From IMG/VR virus record IMGVR_UViG_3300012931_000015, positions 64,001 to 128,000 of that record: a stretch of DNA of 64,000 nt. The stretch is one strand, 5' to 3'. The DNA comes from a virus. Shown here piece by piece: positions 12,797 through 46,387 of this stretch. The notes under the pieces were generated by a model, which saw nothing but the letters and a program-made list of their open reading frames with translations, made no database searches and was not told the origin of the DNA. A program made the translations under genes and the position numbers. Each line of letters begins with the position of its first letter. The stretch's first letter is position 1.

Positions 12797-13525
12797 TTAT
12801 TTTTTACATTTATAAAAAATCCATAGTTGGTGATCTGAGCTCCATGCCTGACTTATTTGATAAGTTATATCTTTAAATCCGATTTCTGTCAAGTCTTTTA
12901 TCACTTCATCAGGATTACTTACAATTGTATCACACATAGCATTTGTACCATGAGCATCAATATAATCCTCATAATAATCATGGTATCGTACCCAATTAGT
13001 TATTTTATAGGTATCAGGATCATAACCCATTTGAAAGCTAAATAAACCATCATTTTTCATAACTCGATAAATATCTTTCATTAAAGAGAATCTTATGGTA
13101 TACACACAAATGTGTTCCATTACGATAGTCGACATTACAAAATCAAAAAGATTATCTGGAATATTTTCTAAATTTACACCATTACAAAGATACAATTTTA
13201 AATTATCTATGTTTTCAAATTTTTCAAAATAATTCTTTTCAGTATAATTGAGATTATTTTGTGATATATCTGTTCCAGCACAAATACCCCAATCAACTAA
13301 ATCTTGTGTATTTAATAGATTGCGCCCGCAACCCGCCCCGAAATCCAGAAAATTTTTCCCCTTCCAATATTCAGGATTATTTCTTACATCGCTTATAAGA
13401 ATATTGTAATAATCTGGGTTATTGTTATGCCCGCCGTGGTTACCGATTTGCATTAGATCAGCATTACCTTCATACCATTCCTTCTGCATTTTAGTATACT
13501 TGTTGTTTTCATCTAATATAGTCAT
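12797..13525 (-). CDS. Class I SAM-dependent methyltransferase
   Basis: LDFGAGCGRN, TDIS, FDFVMS, IYRVMKNDG motifs. Confidence 0.85.
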   Translation of the reverse strand: MTILDENNKYTKMQKEWYEGNADLMQIGNHGGHNNNPDYYNILISDVRNNPEYWKGKNFLDFGAGCGRNLLNTQDLVDWGICAGTDISQNNLNYTEKNYFEKFENIDNLKLYLCNGVNLENIPDNLFDFVMSTIVMEHICVYTIRFSLMKDIYRVMKNDGLFSFQMGYDPDTYKITNWVRYHDYYEDYIDAHGTNAMCDTIVSNPDEVIKDLTEIGFKDITYQISQAWSSDHQLWIFYKCKK

Positions 13526-13546
13526 TTTTTATTTCCTTTTTAAAAA

Positions 13547-14058
13547 AGATAGATAGCTAAATTTTATATTCTTATAATCTTTCTAAAGTTTTACCTTCAT
13601 TATTTAGTAAGTAAATATCCTCATTATTTCTATAACAAGCAACACGAAGATCATTACCATTACTAAAGTTAATATCAATGATTTTTATACCCCAATAAGC
13701 TCTGTCATTTTCTTCATCTAAATGATGTTGCTGTAATACTTCTTCAGGGTCAAGTATCATTTCATCAACTGGCATGATTACATCTAATAATACTCTATGT
13801 TTTCCCTGCAATGTACAGTTTTCACTCAACCCACATATTTGAAGGTATTTATCATTTTCGTTAAATTCAAATCCTTCATCTTCTAGTTTTGATTTTTGAG
13901 TTAATGCAAAATCAGCAGGTATTGATACATCTATTTTATTAATGTTATCAATATAAATCCAGTTATTGCCTTTTTTACTTTTCTTAATTTTTAAAATCAT
14001 ATTCTTTTCTACCTCTTTAATTTTTTGTCTAACTTTCTTTTTATTTGGCTATCTATCT
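13547..14058. repeat. 16-bp inverted repeat (13547-13562 and 14043-14058) flanking one gene
   Basis: AGATAGATAGCTAAAT versus ATTTGGCTATCTATCT, 15 of 16 complementary. Confidence 0.8.
13572..14000 (-). CDS. Conserved phage hypothetical protein
   Basis: ORF with SD; C-terminal YLLNNEGKTLERL motif. Confidence 0.6.
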   Translation of the reverse strand: MILKIKKSKKGNNWIYIDNINKIDVSIPADFALTQKSKLEDEGFEFNENDKYLQICGLSENCTLQGKHRVLLDVIMPVDEMILDPEEVLQQHHLDEENDRAYWGIKIIDINFSNGNDLRVACYRNNEDIYLLNNEGKTLERL

Positions 14059-14074
14059 ACTTGATATTAGTACG

Positions 14075-14605
14075 TTAATTTATTTTAAAACATTTTCCAT
14101 TTTCAGAAAATATTTCCTCAAATTTTTTATAATTTGTTCCTAAATATATCATACAACAAGCCATAGGCGCACCTTTTTTATTTTCTTTGCCTTTACTCCA
14201 AAACTTTAATCGTGTATCATTTAAAAAACAAATAGCAGTAGCATTTTTAAAAATTAAATTTTTAAAATGTTTTGTATTAGTTGCAACTGGTATTAATAAT
14301 AGTATTTCATTTTTGTACTGTATGAAAGTATTTATACATTTTTCTATCCAATCATAAATTGTTATTTTATTTTATTTATTTCTTCCATAGGGAGGATTTA
14401 CAAAAATTGTTTTATAATTCCATATTTCATTTAGTCCGTTCTTTTCTGGAAATATAAATTTTGTTTTAGCATTTATAAAACTATATTCATTACTACAAGG
14501 GTCAAGTTCAATATTATTATTAAAAAATTTATTAATTATTTGTACATATTTAGGAGGAGTGTTCCAATCCTTTTTATCTGTTATGTGCTTTCGTCCTGCT
14601 ATCAT
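14075..14605 (-). pseudogene. Phage Dam-like N6-adenine DNA methyltransferase interrupted by an in-frame TAA
   Basis: WNTP, LDPCS, FVNPPY, then TAA at 14372-14374; the same frame continues NKITIYDWIEK...LLIPVATNT...RLKF...GAP to a stop at 14075. Confidence 0.8.
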
Positions 14606-14805
14606 TGATTAGCTCTTGTGTTCCATTCAATAACTGCTTGTTCATCACTGCATTTATCACTAACCCATTTCTCACAACCGCAATTACATGCAAAATATCT
14701 TATTTTAGCCCCACAACATTCTTCTTCACATCTCACTATTTCTATTTCTTTGCTATTGCAAAATGGACAAGGTAGTAGTTGTTTTTTAATTTGTTTATCT
14801 TTCAC
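14602..14805 (-). CDS. Lar-like restriction alleviation zinc-finger protein
   Basis: LLPCPFC...CNCG...AVIEWNTRA. Confidence 0.7.
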   Translation of the reverse strand: MKDKQIKKQLLPCPFCNSKEIEIVRCEEECCGAKIRYFACNCGCEKWVSDKCSDEQAVIEWNTRANQ

Positions 14806-16314
14806 TTTATTTATTTTCCTATATGACTAAATCTTAAATCACAATATGTTGCATCTGAAGAATAATAATAATCTCCACCCTGTCTGTCATAAAGTTTTAC
14901 AACTTCATAATATACTTTTTCATTATTTTCAAGTTCTTTCATTACAACTTTTAATCCTAGTTTACAATTAATATAATTGTCATTTTTATCAAAAATAATA
15001 GGATACTTTCTTTCTTTATTCCACACAGTAACATTGTACCAAACATCTTTTATATATTTTGGACTTTTATTTTTTATTCTTTTTAAAAATTCTTTGAACA
15101 TATTAGTTTTTATCCTTTATTTTTTATAAATTTATAGCATTCTTCATAAGCTTTTAATTTACCTTTTGCATAATAGCCTAGTGTATCGTTTCCGTGTTTT
15201 TCAACTTCTTCTCTTTCTATTTGTATTCTCGTTTCTAAATCTGAAATATTTAAAATATCAGACATATCTTAATTCTCCTTTTCTTCCACATTATCAAGTT
15301 CATCCTGACACTCTATAATATCTAATAATAATTGTTTACCTTTATCTGTTAGCCAACTACATCTAATAGTACTTCCATGTTCAAGATAACCTTTGTGAGT
15401 AGCCCAATAAGCAAAAAACATATAAGGTAGATCAGCATAATCTTGATATTTTTTATTATCAAATACCATAAGCATAGCTTTTACATAATCCATTATTTCT
15501 TCTGGATTACCACAACCACAAAAATCTAGTTCATCTATCATTAAAAAATCACTTTTAGAATCCCAATGACACCCTGTTGTATCAATATAACCACTACCAT
15601 AATATTCATCTTTTTTTAATATTTCTAACATTTAGTTTGTCCTTCTAATAATTCATCTATTTCTTTTTTAGTAAAATATGTTTCAAGTTTTATAGGTTTA
15701 AAAATATTAAACATCATTTTATTGTAACTTGGTAATTTATCATACAAGTGTTCTGGATTTTTTCCTTGACAAATTAATTTAATATTTTTTTTACTATCTA
15801 AATCAATCACTTTGTTTCTAAAACGAAAAACTTTATCATTTCTATAAAAAAAGAAGTAAAAATTTAAGAACGAAAGTAATACAGCAACGCTAATAATAAT
15901 TGTAGTAAAAGTAGTAATTGTTGAAATCATGAATAAATCCTCCAATATAACTCTAAAGTATCATAATCTTTTAATTTAAATCTCCAATTTCTCAAATACA
16001 AATCTATAATTTTTCTATGCTCTCTTAGATCACAATATGTTCCATAATGTTTGTATTTTTTATGATATTTTTTGTAAATTTTTAATTCTTTTAATTGTTT
16101 CTTAAAACATTTTTTGTAGTTAAATTTCATACAATTACTTCCTATTCTTTTTTTAGTTCATCAAAATTTAATATAATTATATTAGCTTCAGGATCAAGAA
16201 ATGCTCCTCTATACTTTCCAGACATTTTGGAATAATACATTTCATTACCTACATTTAATATTATATCAGTATTTTCTTTAATATCTTTTATATAATTTAA
16301 TAAATCTTGTTTTT

Positions 16315-42444: not shown

Positions 42445-44330
42445 CGCTCATGCTAATTAGTAATTCAAACCATAAAAGGTTAAAAACACGAATTCTTTAT
42501 TTAACTTTAATTGAATACTGAATTTTTAAAACATTTTTTGTAAAATATACACATGTTTTATCTTTGTTTATTCTTGCTATTTCTTTTCCAGAACCATCTT
42601 TAAAAACGCCTTTATTATCTGAAAGAAATTCTAATCCCCAAATAGATAATAAACAATTCTTTAATTTTTTTACTGGTGTGTAAGATAATTTAATCTCTAG
42701 TTCATCTTCTTCTACAACTTCATTTGCATAATACTCTTTTTTCATAGGTTTTCTCCTTTTATATTTGTATCATTCATCTATTTCAAAGTCAACTACTATT
42801 GTCTTTTTAAATTTAAACTCAAAAGACTTATCTAACACACAAATTTTAAAGTTGTGTTTATCAACTTCATTATTATATTTTTTTAGATACTCGTAACACT
42901 TAACCTTTACGTTGTGCATAAAAGTAGGTTTGAAGTTTAATTTTTCATCAAATATATAATATCTAGGATACTTGTGTTCCATTATCAAAATACCATTATA
43001 CTTCATATCAACAGTAATTTCATCTGAATAGCTTATATCATAATTCTCTATTATATTACTATTTTCTTCTTGTTTTATTTTTCTATTTATTTCATCTAAT
43101 CTTCTTTCATTTTCTAACCAAGATATATTTCTTTTCTCATTTACATTATCACATTCAGAAAGGCATTCGTTACAATCTGAATGTTTTCCACACAACTGAA
43201 ATAATTTTGCATCGCTCATATTTTCTCCTTATTTCTTACTGCCATAGTATAATTTCCATCAGCAGATAATTTATCCAGTCTATTAGCTTCACCTTCTATT
43301 TCAATAGCAAAGTCTTTTTTAGATATTGTATCCTGATGATATGTATTATATTTTTTGCATTCATTAGAGTTACATTTTATTTCTTCACATTTGTAACAAG
43401 GGGATATTATTTTTAAAGGTTTTTCTGTCATAACTATTTCTCTTTATTTAATTTTGAAAAGTGAAATCTATCACCAATATTATATTGTTCTTTAGTGTAT
43501 AATACTAATGTTAGTTTATGAATATCACCGCCCTGATAATAGTAAGAATCATTTGATTCTACATATTCCTTCCGATAATGTATAAAAGTTACTTCATTTA
43601 CTTTTACAGAATCAACTTCAACTTGTGTGATACCAACTACCATAAAATAATCATTATCATATAGCTTTAAAGATTCCTTTGCATCACAACCAATAAAGAA
43701 TAAAATAACAACAAATAAAAACACTAATTTTTTCATAATATCTCCTTCTAATTATTTAAATATAAAATTTTTTAATCTTATTATCTGTATCTGGATATTC
43801 TTTTTCTTCTGCTAATAACTGAATAGTATTTAGTTGTCTATCAGAGCTAAAACCATAATCCTTATCTGTTAAATTATTTTTAACTTTTTCATAAGCTTCA
43901 GTTTCATTTTCAGCCACAACATAAAAATTGAAAGAAAATTTTTGACAAGTAACTAAATATAGTTTTTTCATTTACTTTCTCCTGCTTTTATTGCCCCTAA
44001 GTAAAAATCAAGTAATTCCTTACCAATATAGCAATTAAACTCACCAAAGTCAATACCGATGTATTTTACTACTTGACCTTCAAATCCCTTGTGGTAATCA
44101 TATTCACCTGATCCAATTTTTAGCTTTACAGCATGATTCCAAGTATCAAGTTCAAAAAATAAATCTTTTGTATATTGTAGTTTTACCCAGTTACCATGTT
44201 TTTTACTCTGCATCTCACCGTTTTTGCAAAGATAGTTTACAAACTCATTGTAAAGTTTTTTGATTTCCTCATCACTTTCATAATTAATGTTGTTCACAAT
44301 TTTTCTCCTCATTTTTTATCATCCTTTTTG

Positions 44331-45782
44331 CAAGGAAGCCCACGATTTTTGTCAAAGAATGAATTACATATTAAATATGTAACTTATTTAAGATTATTTG
44401 TCAAATAAATTTACAAATTTTTTAACTACTTTAAAAAATATAAGATACTAATAATAAAAGAAATGTTTTAACTAAATTATTTTAGGTAAAAAATGAAAGA
44501 AACTAAAAGACAAAACATTATTAAATCTCTTCAAGAAACGAAAGAAAAAAGAAAAACTCAAAAATGTTTGGTTTTTGAATTAAAAATAAATTATTCTAAA
44601 TTAAATAAAGTCCAAAAAGAAACATTAAAAATGTTTTTTGTAGAAGCTAAGTGGTTATATAATTTTTATTTATCAACAGATGATATTTTTAATCAATCAG
44701 ATAAAATAGAAAAAGTTATAATTAAAGATAAAGATAAAAAGGATATAGAAAAAAAATTACAATATTTACCCGCTCAAGTAAAACAAACAATTCTAAAACA
44801 ATTAAAACAAAATGTTTATAATTTAAGCAGAGCTAAAAAGAAAAATAATAAAGTTGGTAAATTAAAATTTAAATCTGAAATTAATTCTATTGATTTTAAT
44901 CAATATGGTAATACTCATAGAATAATAAATAATAATTTATTTAAAATTGGGAGAATAAAAAAATATATTAAAGTTCACGGTCTAAATCAAATCAAACCAG
45001 AATATGAGATTGCAAATGCAAAATTAATAAAAAAAGCAAGTGGGTATTATATTAAATTAACTTGTTTTGAAAATTTGAATAGTAAAGATTTTAACTTTAT
45101 AAATAATAAAAAAGGAGATGTAGGAATTGATTTTGGAATTAAAGATAATATTGTAACATCTGATGGAGAGTTTTTTAATATAAAAATTCAAGAAGATGAA
45201 CACTTAAAAAGATTGCAAAGAAAATTTGCAAGACAAAAAAAAGGTTCAAAGAATTTTTATAAAACAAAACAAAAAATTAAAAGATGTTATGAAAAAATAT
45301 CTAATAAAAAACAAGATCAAGTAAATAAATTAGTAAATTATCTTTGTACTAGTTACACATCAATTTATATGCAAGATGAGAATTTAAAAGGGTGGCATTT
45401 AGGGCTGTTTGGGAAACAAGTTCAGCATTCAGCATTAGGAAGTATAAAACAAAAACTTTTTAAACAAAAAAATGTAATAATTATTAATAGGTTTGAACCT
45501 ACAACAAAACTTTGTCATGAATGCGGAGCTATTAATAAAGATATAAAACTATCTGATAGAATTTTTAAATGTGCCTGTGGTTATGAAGAACACAGAGATA
45601 TTAAATCTGCTAAAACAATCAGATTTATAGGTAGATTTAAAAATAATTATATACCTACGGAACATAGGGATTTTAAGCCTGTGGAGAAATAAACCTCTAC
45701 TTTTTAGTGAATTTTTTCATTTAAAAGCAAGTTATGTTTCAATGAAACAGGAAGCTCATGAATTTATTCGTGGGTAGTTCAC
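44331..45782 (+). mobile_element. Non-autonomous IS200/IS605-family element (tnpB only)
   Basis: Left end CAAGGAAGCCCACGA..., right-end hairpin GCTCATGAAT/ATTCGTGGGT then AGTTCAC; removal restores an uninterrupted gene junction. Confidence 0.8.
44493..45692 (+). CDS. tnpB: TnpB RNA-guided endonuclease
   Basis: GIDFGIK (RuvC-I), MQDENL (RuvC-II region), TTKLCHECG...CACG zinc finger, HRD (RuvC-III). Confidence 0.92.
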   Translation: MKETKRQNIIKSLQETKEKRKTQKCLVFELKINYSKLNKVQKETLKMFFVEAKWLYNFYLSTDDIFNQSDKIEKVIIKDKDKKDIEKKLQYLPAQVKQTILKQLKQNVYNLSRAKKKNNKVGKLKFKSEINSIDFNQYGNTHRIINNNLFKIGRIKKYIKVHGLNQIKPEYEIANAKLIKKASGYYIKLTCFENLNSKDFNFINNKKGDVGIDFGIKDNIVTSDGEFFNIKIQEDEHLKRLQRKFARQKKGSKNFYKTKQKIKRCYEKISNKKQDQVNKLVNYLCTSYTSIYMQDENLKGWHLGLFGKQVQHSALGSIKQKLFKQKNVIIINRFEPTTKLCHECGAINKDIKLSDRIFKCACGYEEHRDIKSAKTIRFIGRFKNNYIPTEHRDFKPVEK

Positions 45783-45800
45783 CAATTATAGCGCATTCCT
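45640..45800 (+). ncRNA. Predicted TnpB omegaRNA (scaffold plus guide); boundaries approximate
   Basis: Overlaps the tnpB 3' end and right end; guide would start at 45783 (CAATTATAGCGCATTCC). Confidence 0.65.
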
Positions 45801-46387
45801 GTATTATTGCTATTTATTTTACAATTATACCACAAATTTCTATAATGATAATTATTTGCTATCTTTTTATCTAAAGCTTCCATTTTCATTTTATGAGCTT
45901 TTAATTCATATTCATTAGCAAAACTTTTTATCCACGAAATACTTTCTTTCATTTTTAATAACTTATTTTCTTTATCTATTTCTTTCTGAATAAGCTTTGC
46001 TCTATGACGTTGTATAAACTCTTCTGTTATCCACTTTACATTATTTAGATATTTTTGACATTGGTCAATTGTTAAATACTCCATACCTGAAAATAGACCC
46101 CTTAAAAAATGAAAGTTCTGTAAATTTTTTTCAGACTTATGCTTTTTAGAAATCATCCATTCATCTAAATGTATTGCTATATAACATAATAACTCCCTTT
46201 CATATCCTACCCACAATTTAGCATTTGGATGATTTATAACAGATCGCTTAGGTGTAATTAGTTTGTCATTTACATATAATAAACTAGCTAGGATATGGAT
46301 ATTTTCATATATGTTAGCTTGAAGTCTTTTTGTATCAAGCATAGAAGCACTTTTATAAAAATCTTTATCTACTATCCACGATTGCAT
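45779..46387 (-). CDS. Pyrimidine-dimer DNA glycosylase/endonuclease V-like protein
   Basis: MQSW...SASMLDTKRL...E...HPNAKLWVGYE...HRAKL. Confidence 0.7.
   Translation of the reverse strand: MQSWIVDKDFYKSASMLDTKRLQANIYENIHILASLLYVNDKLITPKRSVINHPNAKLWVGYERELLCYIAIHLDEWMISKKHKSEKNLQNFHFLRGLFSGMEYLTIDQCQKYLNNVKWITEEFIQRHRAKLIQKEIDKENKLLKMKESISWIKSFANEYELKAHKMKMEALDKKIANNYHYRNLWYNCKINSNNTGMRYNW

Follow-up and report, generated by a model that had tools for sequence, protein, structure and literature searches.

A tnpA-less IS200/IS605-family TnpB element with revised ends and a predicted omegaRNA at the 3′ end of a DenV-like phage gene

Here, we describe a TnpB element in a 64,000-nucleotide stretch of viral DNA (hereafter, the window), which comprises bases 64001-128000 of the 163,578-bp IMG/VR virus record IMGVR_UViG_3300012931_000015 (CheckV completeness ~74%). 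At this locus, small phage genes form a minus-strand operon, which a single plus-strand open reading frame (ORF) of 399 amino acids (aa) interrupts, and overlaps of 4 nucleotides (nt), reading ATGA, are found between neighboring genes of the region, as an earlier reading of the window's letters and ORFs (the sequence-only reading) had remarked. In identity and architecture, the interrupting element is almost certainly a tnpA-less (IS1341-type) member of the IS200/IS605 family at ~44320/44321-45782, in which a decayed left end is followed by tnpB and by a right end that doubles as a predicted omegaRNA scaffold. It occupies the very 3′ terminus of a pyrimidine-dimer glycosylase-like gene, antisense to the phage operon. 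Our main result is a corrected anatomy of this element, with the right end at 45782, the guide starting at 45783, a transposon-adjacent motif (TAM) TTTAT(C) at 44315-44320, and a dead left hairpin. The window DNA is present in wetland metagenome runs; two of these contain it and are its probable origin.

The gene tnpB (44493..45692, or to 45695 with the stop codon, plus strand) is an intact 1.2-kb ORF, free of stops and frameshifts, and the sequence-only reading was right to see a real TnpB element here: the 399-aa product carries the domains OrfB_IS605 (PF01385, E 1.1e-12) and Cas12f1-like_TNB, a zinc ribbon (PF07282, E 9.2e-11), and matches phrog_506, annotated as ‘transposase’, at E 4.8e-50. 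Across 18 aligned sequences, invariant columns hold the D213/E296/D369 triad of RuvC and the zinc residues C341, C344, C360, and C362, and all are kept in the window's TnpB. TnpB homologues number more than 2,000, the closest (66-71% identity) being found in metagenomes, and alignment to solved TnpBs gave 8IAZ as the best natural solved relative (E 6.9e-22), with 8EXA and 8H1J at E ~7e-17. Upstream of the gene, a TACTAATA block (44446..44453, plus strand) is conserved 5′ of tnpB in the left-end alignment of close relatives and is possibly the element's own −10-like promoter element.

To compare element ends, 160 related loci were taken from genome and metagenome contigs. Downstream of tnpB, 97 of these loci share the order CCTGTGGAG ... 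CAGGAAG, a hairpin, GTAGTTCA, and then a base N, which tracks the base 5′ of the right-end hairpin: GAAG goes mostly with C, GAAC with G (3/3), and GAAA with T (4/5), with a few G.T pairs. Pairing of a transposon-encoded terminal motif with a DNA guide beside the hairpin is described for IS608-type elements (Meers 2023, bioRxiv 10.1101/2023.03.14.532601), and the covariation of N, which follows this pattern, makes N the element's final base. In the window the sequence is GAAG-CTCATGAATTTATTCGTGGG-TAGTTCAC (GAAG-CTCATGAATTTATTCGTGGG-TAGT-TCAC|), and therefore the element ends at 45782 and its guide starts at 45783. All on the plus strand, the DNA guide GAAG (45751-45754) is followed by the right-end hairpin (45755-45774), which folds in DNA folding, and by the terminal motif (TEM) TCAC (45779-45782), the last base of which pairs with the DNA guide.

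The guide region of the predicted omegaRNA, CAATTATAGCGCATTCCTGT (45783..45802, plus strand), opens at the first base past the right end and is antisense to the last codons of the DenV-like gene. It begins CAATTATAGCG, in agreement with the guide CAATTATAGCGCATTCC of the sequence-only reading, whose right boundary 45782|45783 likewise stands on both the terminal-base covariation of the 97 relatives and the end point of the covariance model given below. The premise of that reading, that TnpB guides come from the right flank and target the element-free donor joint, also agrees with published work, in which the DNA beside the right end supplies the guide and the target is the TAM-plus-flank ‘donor joint’ (Karvelis 2021, PMC8612924; Meers 2023). 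Within the 163.6-kb phage record the guide is unique, and its sole exact copy is the resident site, which stands behind TTCAC instead of a TAM; it is plausible that TTCAC in the TAM position protects the resident site from its own nuclease.

The predicted omegaRNA scaffold together with the right end spans 45640..45782 (plus strand) and is delimited by a covariance model, compensatory changes, and terminal-base covariation. It includes a scaffold hairpin at 45654-45668 and a CCTGTGGAG...CAGG stem from 45678, both on the plus strand. An RNAalifold consensus from 34 right ends showed compensatory changes in 16 of 23 pairs, and a covariance model built from 28 relatives, with both phage copies excluded, aligned end to end with window positions 45640-45782 and scored 115.6 bits, level with bona fide relatives and with a match that ends exactly at 45782. 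The model found one other match in the phage, a stand-alone copy at 117.9 bits, and no third, such that this scaffold class has exactly two copies in the phage and one matching TnpB.

Two side observations concern the same stretch. The only terminator-like site in the element (45681-45700, plus strand), GTGGAG...CTCTAC followed by TTTTT, lies just past the tnpB stop; it is the scaffold's conserved GGAG/CUCU helix, and transcription may not stop there. Separately, the 51 nt at 45648-45698 form a separate unitig in the Logan contigs of both source runs, at ~2× the depth of the 16-kb neighbor (in X1, 39.8 versus 19.3 for the neighboring 16-kb contig), a depth that fits the exact duplication of this stretch in the stand-alone omegaRNA copy; the duplication in turn explains why the assemblies break there.

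At the left end, close relatives show the order TTAC, 16-20 nt ending in YGCCAAAGAAAG or YGCAAGAAAG, a GC-rich hairpin, and ATGAAT. Among ~54 left ends assigned by script, the TAM was TTAC in 38 and TTAT in 16 (~13 of these 16 being real), the distance from TAM to hairpin foot was 16-20 nt in relatives (mode 18), and the last TAM base paired with the base 5′ of the left hairpin in 41/54 (G-C 32, A-T 9). The window reads TTTAT-C-ATCCTTTTTGCAAGGAAG-CCCACGATTTTTGTCAAAGA-ATGAATT, and from 44322 onward it is 79.5% identical by BLAST to the left end of an autonomous IS605 in the same phage. Its TAM, TTTAT(C), occupies 44315..44320 on the plus strand, 18-19 nt 5′ of the hairpin foot. TTTAT itself is 44315-44319, and C44320 either closes the flank or opens the element, such that the element starts at 44320 or 44321. 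A left boundary of 44320 ± 1 is thus one that we hold with high confidence, and no target duplication flanks the revised ends.

The left end itself (44321..44365, plus strand) is decayed, as judged by aligning it with relatives and with the phage's own autonomous IS605. It keeps the conserved motif GCAAGGAAG (44330-44338; family consensus YGCAAGRAAG), the 5′ arm of the left hairpin, CCCACGA (44339-44345), and the conserved ATGAATT (44359-44365). The 3′ arm, TGTCAAAGA, has lost its G's (CATGGGA changed to CAAAGAA), and DNA folding gave no left-end hairpin at the expected place in the window. Since the flanking motifs GCAAGGAAG and ATGAATT are retained, we read the missing hairpin as decay of a former family member. 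Excision requires intact ends (Meers 2023), and with the left hairpin lost this copy is therefore probably immobile.

The phage holds further IS605-related DNA outside the window. An autonomous IS605 (G000:C1:13666-15366) carries a Y1 tnpA (13808-14209, 136.6 bits) and a tnpB (14206-15327) whose 373-aa product is ~36% identical to the window's TnpB. Its ends are IS608-like, the left reading TTAC|GATTCTTTTTTGCAAGAAAG-TCCAAGACTTTAGTCATGGGA-TGAATT and the right GAAT-hairpin-...TCAA|, and it interrupts a phage gene, because exact removal along TTAC|...TCAA| yields a single 306-aa frame (...QANSQGLRKRCIIVNKVCPDC...) from ORFs 13497-13709 and 15321-16118. The stand-alone omegaRNA scaffold (G000:C1:26192-26334, L002:1496-1638, plus strand) has no tnpB and is 81% identical to the window's right end; over its first ~56 nt it matches window 45645-45700 without a difference, similarity is lost right after the common TTCAC, and its terminal hairpin and helices are kept through compensatory changes. 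Its putative guide is TAATAAAGTGATTAAT..., with flank and guide reading TAATAAAGTGATTAATATAA, and no TTAY-flanked target of this guide was found within the phage. A TACTAATA block lies just 5′ of it, as before the window's tnpB, while a weak similarity between its upstream DNA and the tnpB promoter region was not significant. An inverted fragment (G000:C1:25808-25977, minus strand) comprising the tnpB upstream region and the first ~35 codons (63% aa identity to the window's) points away from the stand-alone omegaRNA, which lies ~220 nt to its right, and is what rearrangement left of a sister element. A third TnpB gene (G000:C1:54075-55358, minus strand; 427 aa) is ~33% identical over the RuvC half, and its right end is unmatched by the scaffold model (R1).

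Beyond this phage, 281 of 50,697 phage records have a TnpB match at E<=1e-10. The nearest viral relative is a TnpB 54% identical to the window's in IMGVR_UViG_3300027896_005002 (416 kb; L009:3001-4259), with a scaffold scoring 64.9 bits, and the window's TnpB/omegaRNA class is thus present in at least one other large phage. One related metagenome TnpB locus (L100:34-986, minus strand) adjoins a cluster of seven tRNA genes.

Taken against the features of the IS200/IS605 family, the element has a TnpB with RuvC and zinc-ribbon parts, a right-end hairpin with terminal-motif pairing, a TAM directly 5′ of the left end without target duplication (its register uncertain by one base), and a structured, predicted omegaRNA that overlaps the tnpB 3′ end and stops at the boundary. 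The left-end subterminal hairpin is missing, with only the 5′ arm CCCACGA remaining. The family's mobilizer, Y1 TnpA, is found outside the element, which itself has no tnpA: the phage has one Y1_Tnp gene (136.6 bits) at another position, and Y1 TnpA adjoins tnpB in ~20 related loci.

The host gene constrains how the element-free site may have looked. The DenV-like (Pyr_excise) gene (45779..46387, minus strand; N-terminal PF03013, E 2.2e-8) encodes a protein ending ...GMRYNW*, and its stop, as the sequence-only reading had noted, lies inside the right end of the element (TGA at 45781-45779), which supplies this stop codon and the third base of the last Trp codon. Among homologues of the glycosylase-like protein, 20 reach the junction codon, where 17 have W, three F, and none C; none stops before this codon and two stop right after it. 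A joint TTTATC|CAATT (flank to C44320, right end 45782) keeps TGG, gives ...MRYNWIKNEEKNCEQH*, and overlaps the next gene. If 44319 was formerly C, with a later C-to-T change, the joint in our own reconstruction would be TTTAC|CAATT, with the family's commonest TAM and a protein ending ...MRYNW* as now. The most likely donor joint therefore keeps the native Trp, as ...TTTTTTATC|CAATTATAGCG or, if 44319 was once C, as ...TTTTTTAC|CAATTATAGCG, and we rank these two first and equal between themselves. The joint 44319|45783 (TTTAT|CAATT) is a minority possibility: it has the most canonical TAM register, but its protein ends ...MRYN*, before the Trp/Phe found in 20/20 homologues. Two further candidates, 44329|45782 (...MRYNWKKDDKK*) and 44320|45782 (...MRYNWDKK* with ATGA), were rejected on the strength of the right-end covariation that makes 45782 the last element base and of the left-end homology that places 44321-44330 inside the element.

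On the other side of the element, which now separates it from the glycosylase gene, lies a 114-aa gene (43968..44312, minus strand) without a family match. The left end (44298-44327, minus strand) provides AAGGA 9 nt upstream of the ATG of this gene at 44312, and an alternative start, GTG at 44300-44298, has AGGAG with a 7-nt spacer; the native gene overlap depends on which of the two candidate starts is used.

The explanation we favor, at a probability of roughly 60% as a whole, is a tnpB-only element with the corrected ends, an intact nuclease, and a guide predicted to target the element-free allele. TnpB with its omegaRNA would cut DNA bearing TTTAY followed by CAATTATAGCG..., that is, the element-free version of the locus. 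Excision by the phage's own Y1 TnpA (at 13.8 kb) would be unlikely, the left hairpin being gone, and restorative homing after excision is likewise unlikely because the left end is dead. The sole natural target left for the cis guide would then be an element-free allele in a co-infecting relative, and cutting it would lead either to recombination that copies the element in (‘non-restorative homing’) or to harm to the rival genome. ‘Transposon non-restorative homing’ in coinfected phages and plasmids is listed in a 2026 review, and the only experimental hint cited is TnpA-independent spread in a plasmid population (PMC13565253). Homing against element-free co-infecting phages, which the sequence-only reading had proposed, is plausible, while the specific claim that the element has such a homing or competition role at present is one that we advance tentatively and at odds somewhat below even.

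Several points weigh against this explanation. The omegaRNA is predicted from sequence alone and its transcript is putative. An intact ORF is by itself no proof of selection, and the window's tnpB ends ~25 aa before most relatives, inside the guide-RNA region, a C-terminal truncation. One base or one substitution separates the possible TAM registers (TTTAT|C versus TTATC|), and if TTTAY must abut the guide match, the mutation-free joint that keeps Trp would sit one base out of register. The nearest glycosylase homologue in the protein database is 54% identical, and no empty allele with any junction, nor any close sibling phage, was found in any collection searched. An exact search of IMG/VR viral contigs with the 17-nt guide/target gave no match, and these contigs contained no relative of either flanking protein. 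In the Logan contigs of four wetland runs none bridged or skipped the element, rare empty alleles being beyond contig data; the only joints there, 44894->45213 and 45433->45656, stem from fragments of other TnpB genes with low similarity.

Of the alternatives, an inert relic fares best: a dying insertion sequence in a tolerated spot, with TnpB and RNA intact from the recency of its decay and no present role. We consider it doubtful in absolute terms and yet nearly as likely as a homing or competition role. It would account for the decayed left-end hairpin, the truncated C-terminal tail of TnpB, and the other insertion-sequence debris at 25.8-26.3 kb (a fragment from the 5′ part of tnpB and a copy of the right end alone), and since two homologues end exactly at the W/F codon, insertion there costs the host gene nothing. 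It sits less well with a 1.2-kb ORF that has gained no stop or frameshift and keeps all catalytic residues, with a scaffold scoring level with bona fide relatives, and with a second scaffold copy that keeps its helices by compensatory changes, which argues for constraint on the RNA in the phage.

That second copy also invites readings in which TnpB serves more than the cis guide. An immobile TnpB may have been fixed by the phage and be served by two guide RNAs, one in cis and one stand-alone 83 kb away, as a weapon or homing drive against co-infecting relatives; we regard this as unlikely, although, if true, it would be a natural phage case of TnpA-independent ‘non-restorative homing’ and of a TnpB with more than one guide locus. 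Less probable still, by a clear step, is that TnpB is kept mainly for the stand-alone guide (TAATAAAGTGATTAAT...), acting in trans against competitor or host DNA, with the cis guide incidental. The presence of two scaffold copies for one matching TnpB, and the 117.9-bit score and intact, compensated terminal hairpin of the solo copy, would fit such a role; on the other hand, the phage, the only DNA searched, holds no TTAY-flanked target of the solo guide, and the solo copy may simply be what a deleted element left of its right end, with a guide that is again just flanking DNA.

With the element's ends set as above, there is very little room for the exact model of the sequence-only reading, namely an element at 44331-45782 with a TAM ending in TTTTG and an empty site CCTTTTTG|CAATTATAGCG. 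Joining 44330 to 45783 does yield ...MRYNCKKDDKK* in frame, with its TGA overlapping the ATG at 44312, and so remakes an ATGA overlap of the kind common in the operon. Any joint of that frame class gives this result, however, such that the agreement is a 1/3 coincidence common to other joints and says little on the boundary, and the match between guide and reconstructed empty site, also offered as evidence, holds by construction for any IS605-type element. The proposed left boundary 44330|44331 is off by ~10-11 nt: 44330 falls within the conserved YGCAAGRAAG motif and within the bases that share homology with the left end of the autonomous IS605, and the boundary leaves 8 nt to the hairpin foot versus 16-20 in every relative. 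Bases 44326-44330 of the supposed TAM belong to the conserved left-end motif, the family TAM being TTAC/TTAT and the window's lying at 44315-44320, and a G-ending TAM cannot pair with the DNA guide GAAG. The joint also turns into Cys a codon that is aromatic in all 20 homologues reaching it, and an exact search for it in IMG/VR viral contigs gave 0 matches. A TAM-library assay or search of relatives built on CCTTTTTG|CAATT would fail because its left side is 10-11 nt wrong; the target to use for cleavage or for an empty-allele search is TTTAY+CAATTATAGCG, not TTTTG+CAATTATAGCG.

An IS607-type element, with a serine recombinase partner and a RAGATH-18-derived guide RNA as in ISFba1, is the least credible alternative: in its favor stand a weak Rfam match to RAGATH-18 (RF03064) at 45678-45753 (31.7 bits, E 0.0017) and the rank of 8IAZ, which we take to be the ISFba1 TnpB (its PDB record says only ‘Transposase’), as best natural solved relative, against which the RAGATH-18 score is below the gathering threshold of 44.9 bits, none of 20 related loci reached E 0.01 (68.7 kb searched, where the window's own match would fail too), the ends are IS608-like hairpins with TTAC/TCAC motifs, and relatives are flanked by Y1 TnpA instead of a serine recombinase, no resolvase-family or serine recombinase gene being found in the phage. 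RAGATH-18 RNAs go with IS607-type TnpBs whose TAM is AGGAG, and the ISFba1 RNA does not overlap its ORF (PMC11061315). We therefore rejected the IS607 type and RAGATH-18 membership, and treat the subthreshold match as a resemblance of the CCUGUGGAG/GAAACAGG helix.

Among known systems, the window element is closest in its end motifs to IS608 of Helicobacter pylori, which reportedly has subterminal hairpins, TTAC 5′ of the left end (as in most relatives and the phage's autonomous copy), no target duplication, and a right-end terminal tetranucleotide whose last base pairs 5′ of the hairpin, this tetranucleotide being TCAA in IS608 and in the autonomous copy and TCAC in the window. The IS608 motifs are also given in Meers 2023. 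Unlike IS608, the window element has no tnpA, a decayed left hairpin, the TAM TTTAT(C), and an only distantly related TnpB. With ISDra2 TnpB (Karvelis 2021, PMC8612924; 8EXA, 8H1J) and ISGst TnpB2 it shares an RNA-guided RuvC nuclease, a flank-derived guide, a donor-joint target, and an omegaRNA (in the window, predicted) overlapping the tnpB 3′ end and right end, and its TAM is of the same T-rich type as the ISGst2 TAM TTTAT (Meers 2023); it differs from them in being remote to the solved structures (E 6.6e-17), in its scaffold class, in being phage-borne, and in its defective left end. ISFba1 TnpB (PMC11061315) belongs to the same superfamily, and the window's core CCUGUGGAG...GAAACAGG resembles the RAGATH-18 outer helix and k-turn, whereas ISFba1 is IS607-type, with the TAM AGGAG and an RNA apart from the ORF, and the window has IS605-type ends and an RNA predicted to overlap the ORF 3′ end.

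In its proposed logic, in which a nuclease cuts the allele lacking it in a co-infecting genome and repair then copies the locus or excludes the rival, the system would resemble the free-standing and intron-borne homing endonucleases of T-even phages (SegF, I-TevI) and non-restorative homing (PMC13565253), except that recognition would be by guide RNA, not protein. In the literature searched, TnpB-driven spread is reported for a plasmid population, not phages, and should the element prove to favor its own transmission when phages co-infect, an idea that is otherwise theoretical and has been shown only in a plasmid population would gain an experimental basis among phages (PMC13565253). Phage tnpB genes as such have been annotated before (phrog_506), including ISCaje3 in Campylobacter phage CP220 and others in Thermus phage phiLo and in Staphylococcus and Mycobacterium phages; these are IS605-family genes in lytic or jumbo-phage genomes, and all are <35% identical to the window's. 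The window element is thus one more IS605-family TnpB in a phage genome, and its end-recognition rules are those of IS608 and ISGst.

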